Positions 6,158 through 51,312 of a stretch of 51,324 nucleotides of DNA are shown here, piece by piece. The stretch's first letter is position 1. Each line of letters opens with the position of its first letter. Position numbers and translations under genes: made by a program. This stretch comes from Escherichia phage WaterSpirit: the sequence record OR896833.1; one strand, 5' to 3'. The notes below the pieces were generated by a model. The model saw nothing but the letters and a program-made list of their open reading frames with translations, did no database searches and was not told the origin of the DNA.

Positions 6158-6206
6158 TGAATACCACAAAATAGATTTGCACCTTTAACCAAAAGTGCTA
6201 TCATGA

Positions 6207-20936: not shown

Positions 20937-20978
20937 ACTATACACGATCTTGAACATCGAGTTTAGCAAAAAGTGCTA
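20937..20978 (-). promoter_or_regulatory. 18-bp element (TAGCACTTTTTGCTAAAC) + 18-nt spacer + TATAGT, upstream of lipoprotein operon
   Basis: Minus-sense read of 20961-20978 matches the conserved element; TATAGT at 20937-20942 (minus sense). Confidence 0.4.
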
Positions 20979-21360
20979 TTTGTTTTTTCTGTTCTCGCTT
21001 GTTATCAAATTCACACCTCCTTAATTTTAGCGCAAAACTTAAACACCAACTGGACAAACAATAGACAGTAAAATCATCTATATACATAAAAAATAAAGAG
21101 TTTATTTATCTATGTATCTATATTTGTTTTTATTTGTTCTCTGTGTTTCATTGGGTTGTGGTGTGTAGCATGTTTGGTGAGTGTATTGATTTATGTAATT
21201 ACAGATGCTCACTGGGTATTGCATATGTATGTATAAAGCTGAGTAGATACGCGAACGCGAGAACAGAAAAATAACAACCTTGATATTCAATCACTTATAA
21301 TCAGATTTTGTTCTTAAGCCCAAAAGAAGCGTTTAGAAAACAGAAAAAACAAATCACCTA

Positions 21361-21388
21361 TTGACTAAACGCATCAAATAGCTAAAAT
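21361..21388 (+). promoter_or_regulatory. Sigma70-like early promoter (TTGACT-16-TAAAAT)
   Basis: Direct read; homologous to the promoter at 42457-42484. Confidence 0.55.
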
Positions 21389-21417
21389 GCAGGCATACCA
21401 ACCAATGAGGGCTAATC

Positions 21418-22479
21418 ATGAATAAATTTATGGCTTACACCAGCGCAGAAATGAGCAACGAGCTTTATCACGATCCAGAAGCATGGACGGCTGAATATGT
21501 TAGCGGTTCAAGTCTGGCAGAGATTTACAGCACTTGCCCTGCTGCCTGGAAGTTCAAGCCGCGCGACGATAAGAGCAAGGCGCTCGTTTTCGGTACGCAG
21601 TCGCATACCAACTTCGAAAGCAAGGAGCTATTTGATAAAACTTACCGCCGTGCGCCAGCGCCGGAAGACTTCAAAGAGTTGATCACAAGCCAAACGGCAT
21701 TGGCTGCAAAGCTGAAATCTTTTGGCCTGAAAGGGACAAGCGGAAAGACTTACCCCGACCTTATCAAAATGATGGTTGATTGTGGCGAAGACCTTAACAT
21801 CATGTGGTTAATCGACATGATCGCAGAAAGCCAGGCCAGAGCCGACGGCGTACAGTTAATCGACGCGAAAGATTACGATGCTTGCGTTGCAATGCGCCAG
21901 GTTTTGGAATCAATACCGGAGCATAACGCTTGTATGAACAGCACAACGGCGCAGCGTGAATTATCGCTGTTCGGTGAAATTAACGGCGTAAAAGTTAAAG
22001 TGCGATGCGACCATGTAGACGTAGTGAAAAACGTCACTGCAACGCTGATTGATGGTTATGATGAAAAAGGTCAGCCCATTTGTCGTGATATTGTTTATCC
22101 AGAAGCAGTGGTGATCACAGACTACAAAACAACAATGAGCGCAAATCCTATGGAGTTTATGCGACTGGCTTACAACCACGGTTATTATTTGAAAATGGCA
22201 CTGCAACATGATTTATTCAGGAAGGCATATCCAGATGAGAAGCGACCTGTAGTTATGCGCCTGTTAGCACAGGAGAAGAAGGAGCCTTATCTACCGCTGG
22301 CTTTCCGCATGAACAGCGAGCAATTGAAAATAGGCCGAGTCCAGTATGTTAGCGTGATCCAACAGTTTGCTATGTGCCAGCAGCATGACGTATGGCCTGC
22401 GTATTCAAACGGTGAGCCGGAAGTTTGCTTGGATACGCCGGAATTTGTGCGCCGACAGTTCAAGCAGTATTTGATTTAA
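21418..22479 (+). CDS. Recombination exonuclease (PD-(D/E)xK-type, RecE/YqaJ-like)
   Basis: 353 aa; ITDYKT motif region typical of this nuclease fold; followed by Erf-like and SSB genes. Confidence 0.55.
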   Translation: MNKFMAYTSAEMSNELYHDPEAWTAEYVSGSSLAEIYSTCPAAWKFKPRDDKSKALVFGTQSHTNFESKELFDKTYRRAPAPEDFKELITSQTALAAKLKSFGLKGTSGKTYPDLIKMMVDCGEDLNIMWLIDMIAESQARADGVQLIDAKDYDACVAMRQVLESIPEHNACMNSTTAQRELSLFGEINGVKVKVRCDHVDVVKNVTATLIDGYDEKGQPICRDIVYPEAVVITDYKTTMSANPMEFMRLAYNHGYYLKMALQHDLFRKAYPDEKRPVVMRLLAQEKKEPYLPLAFRMNSEQLKIGRVQYVSVIQQFAMCQQHDVWPAYSNGEPEVCLDTPEFVRRQFKQYLI

Positions 22480-24736: not shown

Positions 24737-25015
24737 TTAAGCCCATTCTCTAATCGGCTGATCTAGCTCAACAACGTATCTGTTAAAAATTACAGCATCA
24801 AACTTATCATCAATGATTCGCACATTAACGAAATAGCCGTCGTTCTTTCGCGCAATCTCCTCGCCATCGTCAGATCGTGCAATTACTGTGTAAGTATTGC
24901 CGATTACATCTAGCAGGATTGCGTCCTGAATGTTTTCGTTTTCGTTCCATTCTATTCTTTCCAGAAAGGCGGAAAACTCCGCCTTGTCTACAAATTTCAG
25001 TGTTAAATCACGCAT
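24737..25015 (-). CDS. Hypothetical protein (92 aa)
   Basis: ATG overlaps tail fibre stop. Confidence 0.3.
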   Translation of the reverse strand: MRDLTLKFVDKAEFSAFLERIEWNENENIQDAILLDVIGNTYTVIARSDDGEEIARKNDGYFVNVRIIDDKFDAVIFNRYVVELDQPIREWA

Positions 25016-26979
25016 TATACAATTTCCCCCAATTGATGATCTGTTAGTGCCTTGTGCCAGATTCTCAAGTTTCTTATATGACCAAAAAGGTGTCTATCCC
25101 CGACTGCTGTCTGACCTGCAATTCTTATCGTAGTTGCCCCTCCTGTATTTTCCCACGTTGTCTTCGCTGGATTTGACAAAATGCCATTGTAACCAGCTTG
25201 GAAACTGCCATCTTTTTTTATCCTATATGCGGCCACGATCTTTTTTGGTGCTTGTCCAGGTGGAAATGATATTGGAGAGCCAAATTGAACATATGGCGTA
25301 CCTAGACTTTTTGGCACATTCCTGAATGCAAAAACAAAGGCACTATCCTTTGTCTTAAATCCACTTATATCATATATGCGCGGAGCGGCATTTGGAGCAA
25401 CAGACCAGTTTTTATTAACTTCAACAAGGCATGTTAAAGGTTTATCAAACATATTGTTTATGCACGGCATAGTCACCATGTCACTCGCCCTTGTTGCCGG
25501 AGTTCCATCAGTGATAACCAGAGACGAAGCAGATGATCCGTTTTCAACTTGGGCGGTAGCTATGGTCATAAATTGACCTGATGTAATATCCTGGCCTGCC
25601 CTTGCTATCATCTCAACGTGAGCATACATCTTTATATCTTCTGGTGCTCTATATGTACCCTGGAATAATACCCATCCACCTGATTCCTGCTTCACATCAT
25701 AAGTCAACTTATCTCCTCCAGTCACATCAAGAGTGACAAGATCTAACATCACGTCAGTTATAAATGTGTTTTCCTGCCCATCAGGATTTAGCTTGGAGAA
25801 TAGCAATCTTAACCTAACTGGTGAAGAATATTCCTCGCCGATTCTTGCGCGTATTGAGATAGTGCCATACTCACCATTCGCAACATCCACTACGCGAGAT
25901 GTACCAGTTGAAATTGCTGTGATCGGGCCAGTATCTTGACTTTCTTTATAAGTGAATTTAGCGGAAGTTATACCAAATTCATCTGTATAATCATCGGATA
26001 CGTCCAGTCTGTTTACGTTTCTATTCCATTTGTTCGGTGAATTGCTATTTATGAAGTTGTTTGTTCTCTGCCCTTCAATCAGCAATCCATCTCTTTCAAA
26101 ACGTGGTTCATCAATTTCTGCAACTGTAAAAACACCTGATTTGTTAATGTAAGTAGCGGTTGATGCTCGTTTAAACTTAACTATCTTGTCACCTGGCATC
26201 GTGATCTCATCGTCACCTATAACAATCTTTTTATATGACGGAGAGAATCCGGTAATCATATCCAGGGAGTCATTAAATGGTATCCACACGTCCGGCAACG
26301 GCTGCAATACATCTTTGTAAGGTTCTGCGGCCTGCTTTGCGTATTCCTCTGCTTTGTCGCGAGCATCCTCTGCGCCAGCCTTTGCAGTGTTCGCATCGTC
26401 ACGCGCAGTTTCAGCTCCTTTTCTTGCTGTTTCAGCGCCAGTCTTTGCAGTGTTTGCAGCGTCGCGCGCGGATTCAGCAGCAGCCTTTGCAGTATCAGCA
26501 CCTTTCTTGCTATTCTCTGCATTTGTTGCTCTTGTCTTCGCGTTATTCTCGCTAGTTTTAGCTGCCTTCTGGCTTGCTGCGGCTGCGTCAGCATTTGTCT
26601 TTACGTCTTCCTGAATCTTCTGTAGCTTATCCCAATCAAAATCCTTGATGATCTCAATAAATCCAGCAAGCTCCGACTCCTTTCCCATGTAGTAGCGCAA
26701 TGTTTCAGCTACGTCTTGCGCCAGGCCATCAACAGTTAACGAGTCATGAAGCAAGATTATGTAGTCTGAACGGGGAACAACAGCACCACCAGTGGTGATT
26801 GCTCGAATGCTAGTATCGTTGACCACTTCGGTGATAACTGCGGCCTGTAGCGGCTGAGTCAGAAAAATAATGGTTGCGCCGGAACGGATCAGCGTTAACT
26901 GCTCACGCCAGTTCGTACCGTAGCCAGTTATATAGCCTTGAGCGTCCATTGACGCTTGACCTTTGCGATAAATTGCCAT
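25015..26979 (-). CDS. Tail fibre protein
   Basis: 654 aa from ATG 26979 (RBS AGGAG, 9-nt spacer); Ala/Thr/Lys-rich repeat region near N-terminus, beta-rich C-terminal region. Confidence 0.55.
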   Translation of the reverse strand: MAIYRKGQASMDAQGYITGYGTNWREQLTLIRSGATIIFLTQPLQAAVITEVVNDTSIRAITTGGAVVPRSDYIILLHDSLTVDGLAQDVAETLRYYMGKESELAGFIEIIKDFDWDKLQKIQEDVKTNADAAAASQKAAKTSENNAKTRATNAENSKKGADTAKAAAESARDAANTAKTGAETARKGAETARDDANTAKAGAEDARDKAEEYAKQAAEPYKDVLQPLPDVWIPFNDSLDMITGFSPSYKKIVIGDDEITMPGDKIVKFKRASTATYINKSGVFTVAEIDEPRFERDGLLIEGQRTNNFINSNSPNKWNRNVNRLDVSDDYTDEFGITSAKFTYKESQDTGPITAISTGTSRVVDVANGEYGTISIRARIGEEYSSPVRLRLLFSKLNPDGQENTFITDVMLDLVTLDVTGGDKLTYDVKQESGGWVLFQGTYRAPEDIKMYAHVEMIARAGQDITSGQFMTIATAQVENGSSASSLVITDGTPATRASDMVTMPCINNMFDKPLTCLVEVNKNWSVAPNAAPRIYDISGFKTKDSAFVFAFRNVPKSLGTPYVQFGSPISFPPGQAPKKIVAAYRIKKDGSFQAGYNGILSNPAKTTWENTGGATTIRIAGQTAVGDRHLFGHIRNLRIWHKALTDHQLGEIV

Positions 26980-26997
26980 CTGTAATTTTCTCCTGTA

Positions 26998-27015
26998 TAG
27001 CACTTTTTGCTAATG
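26998..27015 (+). promoter_or_regulatory. Copy of the 18-bp element (TAGCACTTTTTGCTAATG) antisense to the tail fibre gene, just upstream of its RBS
   Basis: Direct read. Confidence 0.35.
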
Positions 27016-27108: not shown

Positions 27109-28020
27109 TTATAAAAGCGATTCAGGCTTGTAAAGTTTTTTCTCAATGCCATTTTTGAAGTTTCCACCAATCGGCAGCATAACATCAAGGTTTCTTTCAT
27201 CGGCGGCGATTATTACATCACGATCATCTTTATGGCATACGACGCGCATCTTTCGATTTCCTTTGTATCTGTGGGCAACCATCTCAAGATTGTAGTTATT
27301 GTAGCACGTCCATACTTCTTGCCCCGTCGCAAGGTGCACATGCTGAGCATTTACCCAGTCAGTGCACAAATAGATCGTCTTATCTGTGCTACCAGTTACA
27401 ACAACCGATCCGCGCGTGTAATCCTTTGCCAGAAATGATTTATCGCCTTCCTCGGTGATAAAGAGAATATTGCACATCTCATCATCCACGCCGTCTTCGT
27501 GAACAAGTCGGCACGGAAGCGCGTGAATGTATCGCCCATCCTTAACGCCGCAATCGTAATGACCATCATCAGGCGGGTAGATTCCTTCAAATACGCTTAA
27601 AGGAGTGCGATCAAATTTAAGCGTCTTTGCCATTACTCTTTCACAGCATTCATGGCTGGCCTGCTTCCCGAAATTGTAGCCGGACGAGCGCGACGCTATC
27701 TTGTTAGCCTTTGCCACCACCTCGACCGGAACGAGGTTGAGCCAGTCGCCCAGCGTGTTAATTGCTTCGCTATAGCTTTCCCCGCGCAATCGCATAAACA
27801 ACCCGATCCCGCTATCGTTACCGCATACGTTGCAGATATTGCCGCCATCACCTTTCTTTGCGAGTTGGTTAGTCCAACGAGCGCGATCTTTGCCACCACA
27901 ATACAGGCACGGTTGATGCTTGCCATTAAAGAAAGATTGAGGCGCATTGCATAGTTTCATTAATGCAGTTTGCCACATTCCAAGCATACGCGGTAAAACT
28001 TCGTCTTTGTCGTAGTGCAT
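27109..28020 (-). CDS. DNA primase (zinc-ribbon + TOPRIM-like)
   Basis: 303 aa from ATG 28020 (RBS GAGGT); CxxC...CxxC zinc-binding motif followed by acidic TOPRIM-like segment. Confidence 0.55.
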   Translation of the reverse strand: MHYDKDEVLPRMLGMWQTALMKLCNAPQSFFNGKHQPCLYCGGKDRARWTNQLAKKGDGGNICNVCGNDSGIGLFMRLRGESYSEAINTLGDWLNLVPVEVVAKANKIASRSSGYNFGKQASHECCERVMAKTLKFDRTPLSVFEGIYPPDDGHYDCGVKDGRYIHALPCRLVHEDGVDDEMCNILFITEEGDKSFLAKDYTRGSVVVTGSTDKTIYLCTDWVNAQHVHLATGQEVWTCYNNYNLEMVAHRYKGNRKMRVVCHKDDRDVIIAADERNLDVMLPIGGNFKNGIEKKLYKPESLL

Positions 28021-28077
28021 TGTAAACCTCATACAAGAAAAAGCCTGGCAATGATAAACCACGCCAGGCAATTAACT

Positions 28078-28554
28078 TTAGCTATTTGTGCTTTTTGGTT
28101 CTTTGTAAAATATTCCGCCAGGTTCATAATCGCGCATCGTTACCACTCGCAACATCTCACGACGTTCGCAACGTGTAACAAGCGGCTTACCGTTTGAGTC
28201 GAATTTTAGATCCGGGCGACAGAATGATGCGCGATATCCTTTACAGCCATTATATTTGTAGTCATTATGCACGCGTTGTGCGCCCATCGCTGAAATCATC
28301 CCGCGCTTGCGCCACATATTTACAGTTTGCTGGGATACTCCCAATCGACGAGCCATATTTGCCACACCTCCGAAATACTCCAGAAGAATATCAAGGCGAG
28401 CGGTCAGTCCGGCTTTTACTTCTTCTTTCAGTATGTAATATCCGGTGCGCGGCTTGCGTGGCTTCTTGTCCTTGCCGCGTCGCGTTCCGTTGTTGCCGTT
28501 CAATGTTCTCTTGTCAATCTCACCAGTATAGGCCGCGATTCGCTTTTCTTTCAT
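28078..28554 (-). CDS. HTH DNA-binding protein (158 aa), basic N-terminus
   Basis: From ATG 28554 (RBS GAGGTG); helix-turn-helix-like segment VANMARRLGVSQQTVNMWRKRGMIS. Confidence 0.45.
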   Translation of the reverse strand: MKEKRIAAYTGEIDKRTLNGNNGTRRGKDKKPRKPRTGYYILKEEVKAGLTARLDILLEYFGGVANMARRLGVSQQTVNMWRKRGMISAMGAQRVHNDYKYNGCKGYRASFCRPDLKFDSNGKPLVTRCERREMLRVVTMRDYEPGGIFYKEPKSTNS

Positions 28555-32708: not shown

Positions 32709-33827
32709 ATGAGTCAGAGCAAGATAACGGACGAGCAATTCACGCATGAGCGATTAAAGGGTAAGAGCTATCGTCAGATTGCTGAGGAATACGGCCTTAA
32801 CGTTCGTAGCGTCGAGCGCCGAGCGGCACGACTGGCAAAACAGGGTAAAATATCAACCATCGGAACTCCTGGTTTTGGTGTTCACGGTGAATCGGTCATG
32901 ACCGACAAAGAAGGTAACGTGATCGTCAAATGGACAAAGACCAGTAAGGACAAAGAGCAACTGGAAGCGTTGATGCGTGCAGCTATGGACGCTTTTACCG
33001 AAGAATTGCCGCGAGTAGATCCGACACCGGAAGAAGCGAGCGAATACAGCGAAAGCCTTGCCCTTTACCCCGTTTTTGATATGCACCTGGGAGCTATGGC
33101 GCACAAACACGAATGCGGCGAGAATTGGGATACTTCCACGGCTGAGAAAGTAATGAATGACTTTTTCGATTATGCTGTGGCCTGTGCACCGTTCAGCGAG
33201 AAAGCAGTGCTACTGATTGGGGGTGACATGCTTCATAGTGACGGCCTGGAAGCAGTAACGCCTGCAAGCGGTCACGTCCTGGATCAAGATAGCCGATACG
33301 CAAAATTGGTTTACGTGGCAATCCGCGCCGTCCGTCGTGCCATTGAGTTGATGCTCAAAAAACACAAAGAAGTAGAGATCCAGATAATTGAGGGAAACCA
33401 TGACCAAAGCGGCATGATCTGGTTACGTGCAGCTATGGCGGCGGCATATGAAAAAGAGCCGCGCGTTTACGTTGATGTATCGCCGCGAGTGGTTCACCAT
33501 ACGCAGTACGGAAAAACCTTCCTTGCATATCATCACGGTCACACCGTCCGCAAGCCGGAAACATTGCTAATGATGTGCGCGGCAGACTGGCGGGAGGACT
33601 TCGGCAACTCAAAAACGATGTATGCGCACGTAGGGCATTTTCATCATCAGACTGTAACAGAAACATCGCTCGGCATTGTTGAAGTACATAGCACGATGGC
33701 AGCTAAAGACGCATACGCCGCGCGAGGCGGTTGGCGTTCCCGTCGCCGTGCTGCGGTTATCATTTACGACAAAGAACACGGCGAAATCGGAAGATTTATG
33801 TTTTATCCTGAGATGGCAGAGAAATAA
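32709..33827 (+). CDS. HTH domain fused to calcineurin-like metallophosphoesterase
   Basis: 372 aa; N-terminal HTH-like SYRQIAEEYGLNVRSVERR; phosphoesterase motifs DxH (FDMH), GD (GGDMLH), GNHD, and His-rich HHGH/HVGHFHH. Confidence 0.5.
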   Translation: MSQSKITDEQFTHERLKGKSYRQIAEEYGLNVRSVERRAARLAKQGKISTIGTPGFGVHGESVMTDKEGNVIVKWTKTSKDKEQLEALMRAAMDAFTEELPRVDPTPEEASEYSESLALYPVFDMHLGAMAHKHECGENWDTSTAEKVMNDFFDYAVACAPFSEKAVLLIGGDMLHSDGLEAVTPASGHVLDQDSRYAKLVYVAIRAVRRAIELMLKKHKEVEIQIIEGNHDQSGMIWLRAAMAAAYEKEPRVYVDVSPRVVHHTQYGKTFLAYHHGHTVRKPETLLMMCAADWREDFGNSKTMYAHVGHFHHQTVTETSLGIVEVHSTMAAKDAYAARGGWRSRRRAAVIIYDKEHGEIGRFMFYPEMAEK

Positions 33828-35716: not shown

Positions 35717-36035
35717 TCATTTCTCCTATCCGTGCCATATCCCTTATCCATTCATTTTGCATTCCCTCAAAGGTGTAAAATTCGAATCCGAACGGCCTAC
35801 GGGCAGATCCGTCAATGCACCAAAATCTACCTTCAACGCCATCCAGATAACCAGCGCCCATCATTCTTGCGCAAAACTCTTTCGATAGCATGGAAGCGAA
35901 CATGCGCGGGGTGAATCCGGCCTGCTTCGCCAGGCGTTCACATTCTCTGTGCTGATAGATAAATTTTGCAATGTGCTGACGAGTAAACCAGTCGTAAGAC
36001 TCACACCATCTGTAGAGATCCAGAATGAACATCAT
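35640..36035 (-). CDS. Hypothetical protein (131 aa)
   Basis: ATG overlaps stop of upstream ATPase gene. Confidence 0.35.
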   Translation of the reverse strand: MMFILDLYRWCESYDWFTRQHIAKFIYQHRECERLAKQAGFTPRMFASMLSKEFCARMMGAGYLDGVEGRFWCIDGSARRPFGFEFYTFEGMQNEWIRDMARIGEMSDDELFGAKSNRQDIEILRRKFNIT

Positions 36036-37618
36036 TACCCCATTAACACAGGATTCACAAAAATAACACCATTAATAACACAAACGTAGTTTTTTTGCTC
36101 AAGCATCGGAAGCAGTTGCGATTCTATGCGCTTCATCACGCCAGCTTGCCCCAGGAAAGGTTTTACCTTGCGTGCTGCCTCATACAAAGCGCGGACATTC
36201 AATACGCCTTTATTTGCCTTACCGTGGCGGGTGATTAACTCAATCAGTTTTGACATCTCGGCATCATCACCAGCATAGCCGGACGCGTTCGCCGCGCTGA
36301 TATACGTTTTGCTCAATTCATGGAACATCAGCAAGGCTTCTTGCATCGTGTCAACGTCAATCTCTCTAGACTTTTGCGGGTATCCAGCAGGATTAAACCA
36401 ATTGCGTATCACATGCAGAACGGCAGCAATGCGGATCACCTGCTTATCCATTTTACCCAGCGCACCGCGTAGCATCGTATGCGAATACTTTCCGCCGTCG
36501 GCAAGATGCGGTTCCATATCCTGGCGTGCAATGTTCAGCACGCGCATTGCAGAACGGCTAACTTTCAGAGAAACGTTAATTTCGCTCATAATGTTATGCA
36601 CCAACTGAAAGTATTGCGCTTTCAATTCACCGTCTACTGGTTCGTAAGTTGAATCACCATTCTCATCAACAAATACACGCGTACCGATTAACGGCTGTTC
36701 GCGCACCAGTAGAAAACGCTCGCTTACACCGATGCCACGAGATCCTGCATCCATGATGCCATTAATGGTTTCATCCTGGGCGATAACACTCATACATCCA
36801 AGCGCAAAAAAACTCATGTTATTGTCTGCATTAGAACGGGCGATAGAAACATGGCCGTGATCCCATGCTTTTAACACAAGTTCGCTGTTAGTTTTGCGCT
36901 CGCTATTCGCGTAAGTCAGGCCAAGCAGACTGTTAATACTGGTTGCTTCATCAGAAATAACCGCGAAGTTTCCTTGTCTGTTATTTATCTTTGCTAATCC
37001 CTCTGGTGTGGTGTCGGAGACAGGGAAAACAACATCGCAAAGTTTGCTTAGTTTTTCTTCCAGATCTTCTTTTTCTTGATATAGAATCTCCATATCTGCG
37101 CCGGAGCGTTCGCTTTTCATCTCCTTTAGTAGTCCGGCAAGTTTTGCCTGTATCTTTTTTCGATCTTTCTTGCGTTGCTCGTTGATGCGATCAACCTCTG
37201 CAACCATAGGAGCAATAGCCAGACTGTTAATCGCGGATTTACCTGCCGACGGAGGCTGGCTTGTCACAACGTAAAGCGCGGTCGGCTGATCTGTTCCGTG
37301 GTAGTCAACTGTGAATCGACCAAGCATAGCGGCAGAAATACATCCGATAAAGTGCATGTAGGCCGATGATTCAGGGAATTGAACAGATCTCGCAAGATTG
37401 CGCGCCAGCTTACCAACTACATCAACATCATTCCCAAGTGAAATAACAGGGTAGCGGTCGTTACCGCCGTTAATATCTTCCACCTGGCCCCAATAGCTTG
37501 AAGATTGGCGGTATCCGTTGGCCTGAATGGATACACGAACAGGGGAAATACCTTGAGATTCGGCGGTTTCAATGATTTGTTTCGGTGATAACTGACTTGT
37601 TTCAAATGAAAAATTCAT
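36035..37618 (-). CDS. P-loop ATPase-like replication-associated protein (possibly DUF3987-type)
   Basis: 527 aa; Walker A-like PPSAGKS; strong RBS AGGAG; in early-left operon. Confidence 0.4.
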   Translation of the reverse strand: MNFSFETSQLSPKQIIETAESQGISPVRVSIQANGYRQSSSYWGQVEDINGGNDRYPVISLGNDVDVVGKLARNLARSVQFPESSAYMHFIGCISAAMLGRFTVDYHGTDQPTALYVVTSQPPSAGKSAINSLAIAPMVAEVDRINEQRKKDRKKIQAKLAGLLKEMKSERSGADMEILYQEKEDLEEKLSKLCDVVFPVSDTTPEGLAKINNRQGNFAVISDEATSINSLLGLTYANSERKTNSELVLKAWDHGHVSIARSNADNNMSFFALGCMSVIAQDETINGIMDAGSRGIGVSERFLLVREQPLIGTRVFVDENGDSTYEPVDGELKAQYFQLVHNIMSEINVSLKVSRSAMRVLNIARQDMEPHLADGGKYSHTMLRGALGKMDKQVIRIAAVLHVIRNWFNPAGYPQKSREIDVDTMQEALLMFHELSKTYISAANASGYAGDDAEMSKLIELITRHGKANKGVLNVRALYEAARKVKPFLGQAGVMKRIESQLLPMLEQKNYVCVINGVIFVNPVLMG

Positions 37619-41281: not shown

Positions 41282-41511
41282 ACATCATTGATAAAATCAG
41301 CGCGGCCTTTAATGTTGCTGATGTGGAAAGTCTTTTCAGCGTACAGGCCATCACCTTCAATCACGATCATTACGCGAGTCGGTTTATTCACGGGCGCACA
41401 TGAAAAGAGTGGGCGCACCGGAAGAAATTTAGTAGTCACATCCAGGTTAGCCCTGGCCGCCCTGCAAAATGCCTCCGCCAGATCTAAATCATTTTCGGTA
41501 ATCACCGCCAT
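41245..41511 (-). CDS. Hypothetical protein (88 aa)
   Basis: ORF in early-left operon. Confidence 0.3.
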   Translation of the reverse strand: MAVITENDLDLAEAFCRAARANLDVTTKFLPVRPLFSCAPVNKPTRVMIVIEGDGLYAEKTFHISNIKGRADFINDVCLLQEKKKCLM

Positions 41512-41783
41512 TACTTCTTGATCTCCTCACTGATAAATTTCAGCACCCGGCGCAAGAAAACTTCGTTGTTGATAGTCGCTGGCAATTCTTCTTTCACCTC
41601 TTGCGGCAGATAGATATTGCCGTGCCAGGTCAAGCAATCGTAGTTGATACGATAAGAGCAAAGCCACTCGCAATCGTTATCTGCTTCCCAAATGCAGAGT
41701 TGCAGAACATCGCCTAAGTTCTCAACAGTCAGATCCAGACCGTGACGCTTAGCGAAATTGAAAGTGGTTTTGCTGATGTTCAT
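41511..41783 (-). CDS. Hypothetical protein (90 aa), first gene of early-left operon
   Basis: RBS GGAGATAGCAAATG. Confidence 0.35.
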   Translation of the reverse strand: MNISKTTFNFAKRHGLDLTVENLGDVLQLCIWEADNDCEWLCSYRINYDCLTWHGNIYLPQEVKEELPATINNEVFLRRVLKFISEEIKK

Positions 41784-41818
41784 TTGCTATCTCCTGAGCG
41801 GTTTGTTTCGATGTGTGT

Positions 41819-41861
41819 AATGTACCCGATCAGAATGATTCGGTTTTAACAAAAAGTGCTA
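41819..41861 (-). promoter_or_regulatory. 18-bp element + 19-nt spacer + TACATT (minus sense), upstream of early-left operon
   Basis: Minus-sense read of 41844-41861. Confidence 0.4.
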
Positions 41862-42456
41862 TTCCATGCCTGGTGCATTATTCCAGTTATTCCACGCTCA
41901 AAGAATAATCGGAATAAGTTGCTTAACTGTTAAATTGGTTAGTGTGATATGCGTTTACCAGGTTTTTCGATTGATTGCGTGTGTGATTAATCATGTGTGG
42001 CGGGGTGTATAGAAAGTAGTTGCCCTCTCGCCTCGTCCTGGTGGCGTCAGCAAACAGAAGCTGTTTATTTTGTTCGCGCGTGTTCGCGTTTCAGGGAGGC
42101 ATGTTTCCGCGCTGTTTTTCAATGTATTGCGAACGCAAAAAACAAAATAAATCCCTTATAATACATTGAAAATAAAGAATATTTATTTATGTGTATATTT
42201 ATGTGTTATTTCTTGTTAGCGTTGTTAGTGTGATATGTGATGGTTGCGGTGTCGCTTTGTTGGTATATATATGGATAGTTGCGCGCCTGGTGGAATGAGT
42301 ATGTATATATACTTTTATTGCGATATTGCGCTAACAGCGCGAACAGAAAGAAAACAAGCGGTAAAAACTTATTGAAAATCATGTGTTTATGTAGCGATTC
42401 TCTCAAAACGTCGGCAACGCGAACAGGCCGCGAACGTTATACGGACAAAATAAACA

Positions 42457-42484
42457 TTGACACGCATGAAATAGCACTTATAAT
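42457..42484 (+). promoter_or_regulatory. Near-consensus sigma70 early promoter (TTGACA-16-TATAAT)
   Basis: Direct read; spacer contains AAATAGCAC; drives early-right gene block. Confidence 0.65.
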
Positions 42485-42515
42485 GGCCTGCAACTGACCA
42501 ACAGGAGGAATGACA

Positions 42516-42977
42516 ATGAGTCAGAAAACATCGAAAGACTATTGCGACTGGTTGCGAGAGCTTGGGCGACGCCTTGCAAGCGGCGAGATTGTAGAGCATA
42601 AAATGTCAGTTCTCGACCTTGCCGGAATGTTAAACGGCGACGACTACTACAAGGTGACAAAGAATCAGGCATACAGCCGCACAATAATCAACCGTGTGCC
42701 GGAAGTGAAAGCGGTTGGAAAGGTGCGAATCAGAACGGAAGAAACGGAAGACGATAAGTTTTACGTTTTCAGCCTGAATCGCGACGTTAAGCGCAAGGTG
42801 ATCACGAGCGAAGACTTGCCAGCCGTCCAGGCAAAGGCGGTAGAAAAGTTCGCCGCTCGCATTCTTGCATCAATGCCAAACGTTACCGATATGCAAGGCG
42901 ATAAACTGGCTGGAGCTTGTGAAGGAATAAGCCGCTACCAGGAAATGATCCGCAATCTTGTTAACGAGGAGAAATGA
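42516..42977 (+). CDS. Hypothetical early protein (153 aa)
   Basis: RBS AGGAGG 7 nt upstream; first gene after the strong promoter. Confidence 0.4.
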   Translation: MSQKTSKDYCDWLRELGRRLASGEIVEHKMSVLDLAGMLNGDDYYKVTKNQAYSRTIINRVPEVKAVGKVRIRTEETEDDKFYVFSLNRDVKRKVITSEDLPAVQAKAVEKFAARILASMPNVTDMQGDKLAGACEGISRYQEMIRNLVNEEK

Positions 42978-50461: not shown

Positions 50462-50704
50462 ATGAGTACGTTACTATTTGTTTTAAGTTATATCCTCACC
50501 TTTATTGCTGGCGCATTTGCATGGGGATGCCTGACGTCAGTCGCAATAGCTCATCTTGCACGTAAAGGCAAGGCGGCGTTTGCCATTTACTCAAGCAAGG
50601 ATGAGAAATGGCATGTTCGCGGTCGATACCTGCGGATCGGACAGGAAATTCACAAGCACATCAAAGCAATGGACGGAAAAGTGGAATACAAATTGCTTGA
50701 GTGA
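50462..50704 (+). CDS. Small membrane protein (80 aa)
   Basis: N-terminal hydrophobic segments. Confidence 0.3.
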   Translation: MSTLLFVLSYILTFIAGAFAWGCLTSVAIAHLARKGKAAFAIYSSKDEKWHVRGRYLRIGQEIHKHIKAMDGKVEYKLLE

Positions 50705-50713
50705 CGAAAAACA

Positions 50714-50738
50714 GCCCGCCTTTATGGCGGGTTTTTTA
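50714..50738 (+). terminator. Intrinsic terminator (CCCGCC-TTTAT-GGCGGG + T6)
   Basis: Direct read after the early-right gene block. Confidence 0.6.
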
Positions 50739-50790
50739 TTGCCTGTTATTTGCTATAATGATGCCCTGTTATCAAAAAGGAGAAATGATT

Positions 50791-51312
50791 ATGGCACGCA
50801 ATCCTGAGCCAGTAGTGAAGGTTCAAAACTTCAAGGAACTATATAACAAGAAATACGGAGATATTGTCACCGTGCAGGCCAGCAGCCGATACACACCGGA
50901 ACAGATTTTCGATCTGGCTGTGCGTTACTTCACCTGGGCAGAACAAAACCACATCCAGGCGGCAGAAACGGCATCTTTCCAGGGCGATGTGTATGAAAGC
51001 AAAGTGCATAAGCCGCGAGTGTTTACGCTGACCGGATTTTCTTTGTTTTCCGGTATCTCTGACAGCAACATCCAGAGACTGCGAAAACTCCCAGGTTACA
51101 GCGATGTTATGGCGTTTATTGATTCCGTTGTATTTGAGCAAAAATTTCAGCTTGCCGCTCACAACATGATTAACCCTGGCTTAATCGGCAAAGAGATCGG
51201 AATAGACAAGCCAGCAAGCATCAACGTTGAGGCCACGGCTGATTCCAGCATCGAATCCGTGACGGCTGAGGAAGTGCGCGAGGCTGTACGCGATATTCTG
51301 GATAATATCTAA
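50791..51312 (+). CDS. Terminase small subunit
   Basis: 173 aa from ATG 50791 (RBS AAGGAG); segment FTLTGFSLFSGISDSNIQR resembles the small-terminase HTH region; adjacent to the large terminase in the circular map. Confidence 0.6.
   Translation: MARNPEPVVKVQNFKELYNKKYGDIVTVQASSRYTPEQIFDLAVRYFTWAEQNHIQAAETASFQGDVYESKVHKPRVFTLTGFSLFSGISDSNIQRLRKLPGYSDVMAFIDSVVFEQKFQLAAHNMINPGLIGKEIGIDKPASINVEATADSSIESVTAEEVREAVRDILDNI

Follow-up and report, generated by a model that had tools for sequence, protein, structure and literature searches.

A putative binding-site array of lineage-variable short repeats in the two divergent control regions of the T1-like Escherichia phage WaterSpirit, with the DUF7174 protein as candidate binder

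The window analysed here (OR896833.1, 51,324 bp) is the complete genome of Escherichia phage WaterSpirit, a T1-like coliphage (Drexlerviridae, Tempevirinae, Warwickvirus) opened at the large terminase gene; over a 2-kb test stretch the genome is 98.5-99% identical to Escherichia phages BEBK14 and MatMar. T1 is a classical coliphage, and T1-like phages are common contaminants of laboratories and fermentations. No defined replication origin, initiator or early regulator of T1-like phages was found in the literature, and a recent re-annotation of phage TLS names among its open questions what the intergenic repeats do (PMC11447400). Comparisons were made with named phages and with 57 related loci from IMG/VR, 36 of which hold the whole control region discussed below; a scan of IMG/VR with the first rightward gene product (gp1) alone gave one locus. 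Individual loci are cited by number, L014 being phage tonn.

At 42 kb, a leftward and a rightward operon diverge from an intergenic region that contains the features listed in Table 1. The rightward promoter P_R is kept by relatives of WaterSpirit, and an A-rich, UP-like tract (ACAAAATAAACA) abuts its TTGACA, placing A/T-rich sequence at -40 to -60; the match to an UP element consists of the A-tract alone, the G/C-rich GCGAAC words lying farther upstream. The region is bounded on the left by a copy of a 21-nt repeat of the Drexlerviridae, which is likely to be a leftward promoter element. In the middle lies a C-poor, T-rich core. In most of the related loci that reach the control region, GC content within the flank upstream of the helicase gene, taken up to 10 kb, is lowest in this core. 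The TATAAT at the left edge of the core has no -35 hexamer at a distance of 16-18 bp and is kept in tonn, L019 and L068; judged from its sequence, it may be a promoter. Rfam models searched against 41400-42900 gave no match at E <= 1. No perfect match to the IHF consensus was found in either control region of this genome, while a perfect IHF site lies at the core edge in L016, L020 and tonn. GC skew mirrors the direction of transcription only and is therefore uninformative about an origin. In the MatMar record (OR896829, 41089-41722, equivalent to about 41866-42499 here), four small CDS annotated as hypothetical proteins lie inside the control region, across the repeats and the skewed core, and probably arose as errors of annotation.

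Table 1. Coordinates of the control-region features and of the proteins considered as binders (WaterSpirit, OR896833.1)
Feature	Coordinates	Strand	Details
Divergent intergenic region	41784-42509 (727 bp)		leftward operon from 41783, rightward operon from 42510
21-nt Drexlerviridae repeat copy	41845-41865	-	ATAGCACTTTTTGTTAAAA; bounds the 42-kb region
Second lineage-specific repeat set and G-block	41860-42030	.	TTATTCC ~41860-41926; G-block ~41999-42016
Left arm, inverted CGCGAAC pair	42072-42077 and 42082-42087	-	spacing 10 bp
Single copy, then A-tract	42129-42134	+	TGCGAACG; in loop of inverted repeat I4
TATAAT, perfect	42157-42162	+	left edge of core
C-poor, T-rich core	42172-42330	+	8% C, 45% T; holds the genome's most T+G-skewed 150-bp windows
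Right arm, best conserved block	42331-42366	+	AACAGCGCGAACAGAAAGAAAACAAGCGG; GCGAAC at 42339
Promoter-proximal direct CGCGAAC pair	42419-42435	+	11 bp apart; centres ~-69 and ~-58 from the predicted P_R start
P_R, consensus sigma-70 promoter	42457-42484	+	TTGACA, 16-nt spacer, TATAAT; 12/12 positions
gp1, DUF7174	42510-42977	+	E = 2.5e-50; first gene downstream of P_R
Left arm, 21-kb region	20983-20996	-	inverted GAGAACAGAAAAAA
Core, 21-kb region	21095-21235	+	8% C, 48% T; same orientation as the 42-kb core
Right arm, 21-kb region	21250-21265	+	CGCGAAC then CGAGAACA, 8 bp apart; tonn: GAGAGAACAGGGGAACAAG
Cro-like HTH protein	28078-28554	-	adjoins primase gene; phrog_2856
DNA-repair exonuclease family protein	32709-33827	+	phrog_704, E = 3e-148; weak N-terminal HTH, below threshold

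A sequence-only reading of this DNA had singled out the hexamer GCGAAC as a candidate operator array. Its positions are exact, namely 42129, 42339, 42419 and 42430 on the given strand and, as GTTCGC, 42072 and 42082; the related copies that it placed in a second control region are also present (GCGAACGCGAGAACAGAAAAA from 21251 and inverted GAGAACAGAAAAAA), and its expectation of about 0.5 chance copies was of the right order of magnitude, the genome-wide frequency giving 0.26-0.27. The proposed comparison with shuffled sequence had a divided outcome. Genome-wide, GCGAAC is not enriched (36 copies versus 32.6 +/- 6.4 in shuffles); six copies fell within 370 bp in 3 of 20,000 random placements of 36 sites. 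Two of the 2,080 hexamers are, however, more clustered than GCGAAC, so that the cluster alone is marginal after post-hoc correction. The enrichment holds for the heptamer CGCGAAC within the control regions: five of the six GCGAAC copies of the 42-kb region and a copy at 21250 have this form, so that half of its 12 genome copies lie in the two control regions. These together span 1,238 bp, and CGCGAAC is the top-ranked 7-mer in them (Poisson p = 1.3e-8; about 1e-4 after Bonferroni correction). The looser word CG-N-GAAC has eight of its 25 genome copies there. The GCGAAC copies are asymmetric 6-8-mers without dyad symmetry, and none overlaps the -35 or -10 of P_R; the nearest ends 21 bp upstream of the -35 hexamer, and the remaining copies flank the T-rich core at no more than 400 bp from P_R.

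One of the copies is enclosed by a perfect 13-bp inverted repeat, I4 (TTTTCAATGTATT / AATACATTGAAAA, 42116-42128 / 42160-42172). The possibility of a conserved hairpin was dropped because the left arm of I4 is neither conserved nor compensated in tonn. The record of Jahat_MG145 ends exactly at the centre of I4 and has the right arm of I4 annotated as a repeat_region.

The control region at 21 kb is a paralogue of the one at 42 kb (alignment A1 of 41830-42520 with 20940-21425, 69% mean column identity), and gene conversion could therefore spread variants between the two. Both have the same order of elements, beginning with a leftward 21-nt repeat and inverted copies (TTTTGTTCGCGC / TTCTGTTCTCGC), continuing with an A-tract, a TATA-like element and the C-poor, T-rich core, and ending with direct copies in a conserved block (GCGCGAACAGAAAGAAAACAA / GCGAGAACAGAAAAATAACAA), an A-rich tract and a rightward promoter with the spacer sequence CGCATnAAATAGC in both regions. 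Both also have copies some 60-70 bp upstream of a consensus sigma-70 promoter. Exact CGCGAAC occurs only once in the 21-kb region of this genome. No other 150-bp windows of the genome are as T+G-skewed as the two cores (70-73% T+G, 8% C), which have the same orientation. Each core is preceded by a conserved TATA(A/T)AT-ACAT element; both may be transcribed or form an unusual DNA structure.

Exact GCGAAC is not conserved in other Warwickvirus species or in the relatives compared. Analogous arrays do stand at homologous positions, for example in T1. Common to the lineages is only an AAC(A/G) core, whose 5' flank differs by lineage. In tonn and L019 the left arm has GTTCAC/GTTACC and the right arm GTGAACAG/GGTAACG; in all, their array has GTGAACA twice and GGTAAC twice. 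In tonn the column of the 42129 copy reads GAAAACG, the 28-bp stretch that holds the 42419 copy is lacking, and the 42430 copy is GGTAAC; the conserved right-arm block aligns with GCGTGAACAGAAAAATAACAG in tonn and with GCGAGAACAGAAAAATAACAACC in the 21-kb control region of WaterSpirit. The same alignment columns are occupied by (G)ATAACA(G) repeats in L020, L068, L016 and L064, with GTTATC three times in the left arm of L020. TLS has GTGAACACGTGAACAG and GGAAC, and also carries the GTGAACAG of tonn. In T1, all six genome copies of TGTAACA lie in its two control regions (p ~6e-15); T1 also has GATTAACA. The dominant repeat of the 36 full loci is often of the form NNN-AAC-A (CGAAACAA, AGAACAA, GTAAACA), and T1-group loci have CTAGACAA instead.

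The repeated 7-mers of a 42-kb region are shared with the 21-kb region of their own genome about twice as often as with those of other genomes (mean 7.3 versus 3.6), a value that none of 5,000 permutations reached, with relatedness ignored and with little contribution from WaterSpirit. Across phages and in both regions, the spacing between copies and the -35 hexamer downstream of them is constant; some of the promoter-adjacent AACA copies are the ends of A-tracts phased at about 10-11 bp. Conserved positions, lineage-specific words and a word common within each genome are together the pattern expected for a phage-encoded reader protein. On these sequence comparisons, the GCGAAC copies are probably the version in this phage of short sites, NNN-AAC-(A/G), that are read by such a protein.

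A natural recombinant bears on which protein this might be. L068 (IMGVR_UViG_3300045988_025133) has a backbone of the tonn type: the terminase small subunit (TerS) is nearly identical, the Cro-like HTH protein and the C-terminus of the helicase each differ at one residue, and the homologue of the exonuclease is identical over its first 90 residues. Leftward of the arms, L068 also shares the GTAATC repeats and the G-block with tonn. It diverges from tonn from the left-arm column rightwards and has there an L020-like module of arms, core, promoter and gp1, with four copies of GATAACA and a gp1 of another clade (29% identical to that of tonn, 60% to that of L020). The array therefore travels with gp1 and not with the Cro-like HTH protein, the exonuclease HTH, the winged HTH of the helicase or TerS, and the control region behaves as an exchangeable cassette. 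None of those four covaries with the repeats in L068. The sequence-only reading was right about a non-random, positionally conserved array in both control regions. It was incomplete on the context, and it finds no support in its two candidate binders, the Cro-like protein and the N-terminus of the exonuclease family protein, the HTH matches of which fall below threshold. Since gp1 adjoins the repeats, their joint change may reflect the linkage of a single recombination module and not co-evolution; it rests mainly on L068, and the gp1 clades of L020 and of L016 and L064 differ while their repeats, (G)ATAACA(G), are similar.

The DUF7174 protein gp1 is the product of the first gene after P_R in TLS, in the Rtp-like phage MSK and, by a weak match, in T1. 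No literature on the family was found. The AlphaFold2 model of gp1 (71 sequences, mean pLDDT 87) consists of H1-S1-H2-H3 and a beta hairpin followed by two long helices, a topology predicted to represent a winged helix that ends in a helical hairpin; gp1 has the look of a DNA-binding protein. A Foldseek search with this model gave no significant match in the PDB and, in BFVD, only uncharacterised T1-like relatives; the replication initiator RepE was among the best fold matches of gp1. The family-invariant residues Y53, R55 and R60 are located in, or directly after, the predicted recognition helix. From the exchange in L068 and the predicted fold, gp1 is probably a better candidate binder than either of the HTH proteins proposed before.

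The primary reading, adopted tentatively and with somewhat less than even confidence, is that of an array of sites bound by gp1 with transcriptional feedback on the divergent early promoters; we infer all three of its elements, namely protein binding, gp1 as the binder and the transcriptional output. Host RNA polymerase would fire P_R immediately on infection and gp1 would be made, after which gp1 would occupy the pair at -58/-69, the copy at 42339 and, beyond the T-rich core, the inverted pair at 42072/42082, as well as the GAGAACA/CGCGAAC sites of the 21-kb control region. The C-terminal helical hairpin of gp1 could pair or bridge molecules, and bridging between sites would wrap or loop the core and feed back on the divergent early promoters as an early shut-off or a switch. 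Copies of the -58/-69 type at consensus promoters in both control regions fit transcriptional feedback. Against the gp1 reading, a perfect consensus promoter needs no activator, and AACA copies that end phased A-tracts could act without a protein. As a kind of element, the array is an undescribed example of something familiar, a putative, ordinary short-repeat binding-site array; together with DUF7174 as a specific candidate binder, it makes the question of the TLS repeats directly testable.

Among the alternatives, an operator array bound by the Cro-like protein or by the N-terminal HTH of the exonuclease family protein is distinctly unlikely. The former does have a Cro-type HTH (similar to Cro structures 5w8y and 3bd1, E ~2e-3 to 5e-3) and belongs to a family annotated as transcriptional regulators, its recognition helix differs among WaterSpirit, TLS and T1 as do the repeats, and the lambdoid phages likewise have multiple Cro/CI sites in a divergent early control region. 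Their operators, however, are dyad-symmetric 17-mers at the -35 and -10, whereas the sites here are not dyad-symmetric, lie off the core promoter hexamers, extend across 370 bp on both sides of a non-coding core and do not vary with the Cro-like protein, which differs by a single residue between tonn and L068 while the 42-kb repeats differ. The exonuclease HTH fails by the same comparison and by its subthreshold scores. Only a little less improbable is that there is no dedicated phage binder and that the copies are UP-like or phased A-tract architecture, sites for host factors, or remnants of duplication and gene conversion. This would accord with the conservation of AAC(A) alone, with the many copies that end A-tracts phased at about 10-11 bp upstream of promoters, with conversion between paralogous regions and with the marginal statistics of the hexamer after multiple testing; but G/C-rich flanks such as CGCG are not A-tracts, the lineage-specific flanks speak against a single host factor, and the joint shift of several copies to one word per lineage (CGCGAAC six times here, TGTAACA six times in T1) is hard to obtain without selection by a shared reader. 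TorR, OmpR, ArcA, PurR, DnaA and Fur were considered as readers by informal comparison with their consensus sequences, and none fits. The least probable alternative, to which very little weight is given, is that the repeats are recognition elements for TerS (50701-51312) flanking a pac cleavage site. In phage P1, hexamer clusters flank the pac cleavage site, and SPP1 has the arrangement pacL-pacC-pacR; the array resembles them in having hexamer clusters on both sides of a central region near the mapped packaging start of relatives. The record of T1 begins within this intergenic region, with a 2.8-kb terminal repeat annotated from position 1, that of XY3 begins at the equivalent of about 42013, the PhageTerm terminus of MSK (36862) maps to the equivalent place between the left repeat cluster and the AT-rich core, and the pac site of TLS was restriction-mapped to the equivalent intergenic region (PMC11447400). 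The termini of T1, TLS, XY3 and MSK thus fall in one intergenic region, about 30-60 bp or more left of the array, with the probable cleavage zone (~42000-42030) only 30-60 bp from the left arm. In contrast to a pac site, of which a single one per genome is expected, the same array design is present at 20983-21265, where there is no such G-block, and in L068 the arms were replaced while TerS, the left repeats and the G-block stayed of the tonn type. The left zone has lineage-specific repeat words of its own (TTATTCC in WaterSpirit and T1, GTAATC in tonn, ACCGATTGGTCTA in TLS, ATTGCA in MSK), which the conserved G-block then follows. Record starts and the PhageTerm terminus of relatives mark 41860-42030 as the probable pac zone, and L068 ties pac recognition to this zone and not to the GCGAAC array; judged from these alignments, pac recognition and cleavage probably occur in this zone, a neighbour of the array and not part of it, and the analysis thereby separates the two.

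A replication origin is the alternative with the most in its favour, possible although on balance unlikely. The repeats would be iterons flanking an unwinding core, and an initiator would melt the T-rich core and load the replicative helicase and the P4-type primase; the initiator would be either gp1, as a protein like plasmid Rep, or the C-terminal winged HTH of the DUF3987 helicase (36035-37618), and each control region would be an origin, or both together a pair like ori/crr of P4. This reading is compatible with autoregulation. Origin function and autoregulation coexist in iteron plasmids, and SaPI origins are a further example of an iteron origin with an adjacent, autoregulated winged-helix initiator. 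As in iteron origins, short repeats spaced by roughly a helical turn (10, 11 and 8 bp) stand in two mutually inverted sets, and between these lies the part of the genome with the lowest GC content and the strongest strand skew; this design occurs at two loci. The likeness to ori2 of the F plasmid with RepE and to pPS10 with RepA is that two repeat sets flank an A+T-rich core, copies lie beside the promoter of the adjacent gene, and that gene encodes a winged helix, as predicted for gp1, which has RepE among its best fold matches. The differences are that gp1 has one winged-helix domain and a helical hairpin instead of two winged-helix domains and no detectable sequence homology, that the repeats here are of 6-8 bp instead of about 19-22 bp, and that neither DnaA sites nor perfect IHF sites were seen in the control regions here. 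In P4, the type I iterons of ori and crr (TGTTCACC, reverse complement GGTGAACA) are spaced 9-11 bp apart in both orientations at two loci, and the alpha primase-helicase binds them through its C-terminal domain. The arrays of this family are alike in orientation, in the spacing of about 10-11 bp and in the two loci; the GTGAACAG of tonn and TLS resembles the P4 iteron, with the octamer core GTGAACA(G) in these variants, and the N-terminal primase part of alpha has a homologue in the primase of WaterSpirit (27109-28071, minus strand; 23% identity over 263 aa, E = 1e-10). Unlike P4, this genome has the word CGCGAACAG, which shares GAACAG with P4 (6 of the 9 bases of GGTGAACAG), and it has a separate helicase (DUF3987/SF6) and primase; no homologue of the origin-binding domain of alpha was found among the ORFs of the genome (best phmmer E = 2). 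The DUF3987 helicase has no homology to P4 alpha, and a PDB sequence search with it gave nothing. The DUF3987 family consists of predicted SF6 replicative helicases that end in a winged HTH (PMC4889955), but tonn and L068, with their different repeats, have a helicase C-terminus that is the same except for one residue. The re-annotation of TLS found no iterons and proposed no origin (PMC11447400). A stronger form of this alternative, a shade less probable again, is that both control regions are origins and DUF7174 is an unrecognised, rapidly diversifying initiator and autoregulator; if it is true, then repeats, core, promoter and gp1 constitute one portable module of specificity, which phages exchange by recombination. 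The core downstream of the conserved TATAAT might be transcribed to aid opening or priming.

The 21-nt repeat aaATAGCACnnnTTGnTAAAA, already known from TLS (PMC11447400), is a further repeated element of these genomes. It is similar to the GCGAAC-type repeats in being family-wide, in having one copy at the boundary of the 42-kb region and in that its ATAGCAC core sits in the spacer of P_R, and differs in that its 20 dispersed copies have a highly conserved sequence, whereas the GCGAAC-type repeats are limited to the two control regions and vary by lineage. In this genome the 20 copies (ATAGCACnnnTTGnTAAA, 0.46 expected) are mostly oriented with local transcription, at sites including 1566, 28565, 31082, 35505, 40261, 41845, 43239 and 48388; those at 6184 (-), 9935 (-) and 26997 (+) are oriented against the neighbouring genes. 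The rightward promoters at 42457-42484 and 21377-21404 have a common spacer, CGCAT-N-AAATAGC, in which ATAGC(AC), the core of the 21-nt repeat, is found, an overlap which hints that the 21-nt repeat itself may be a promoter-spacer and -10 element. Another repeat, a tandem of two 63-bp copies that are 75% identical (26369-26494), lies within a leftward 662-aa ORF (25015-27003) homologous to the tail fibre gene of tonn and TLS. About 20 GenBank records numbered MG0656xx, 'Campylobacter phage A14b' and C4 among them, are given as phages of Campylobacter jejuni. They match this coliphage at 80-86% identity and are probably mislabelled or contaminant genomes.
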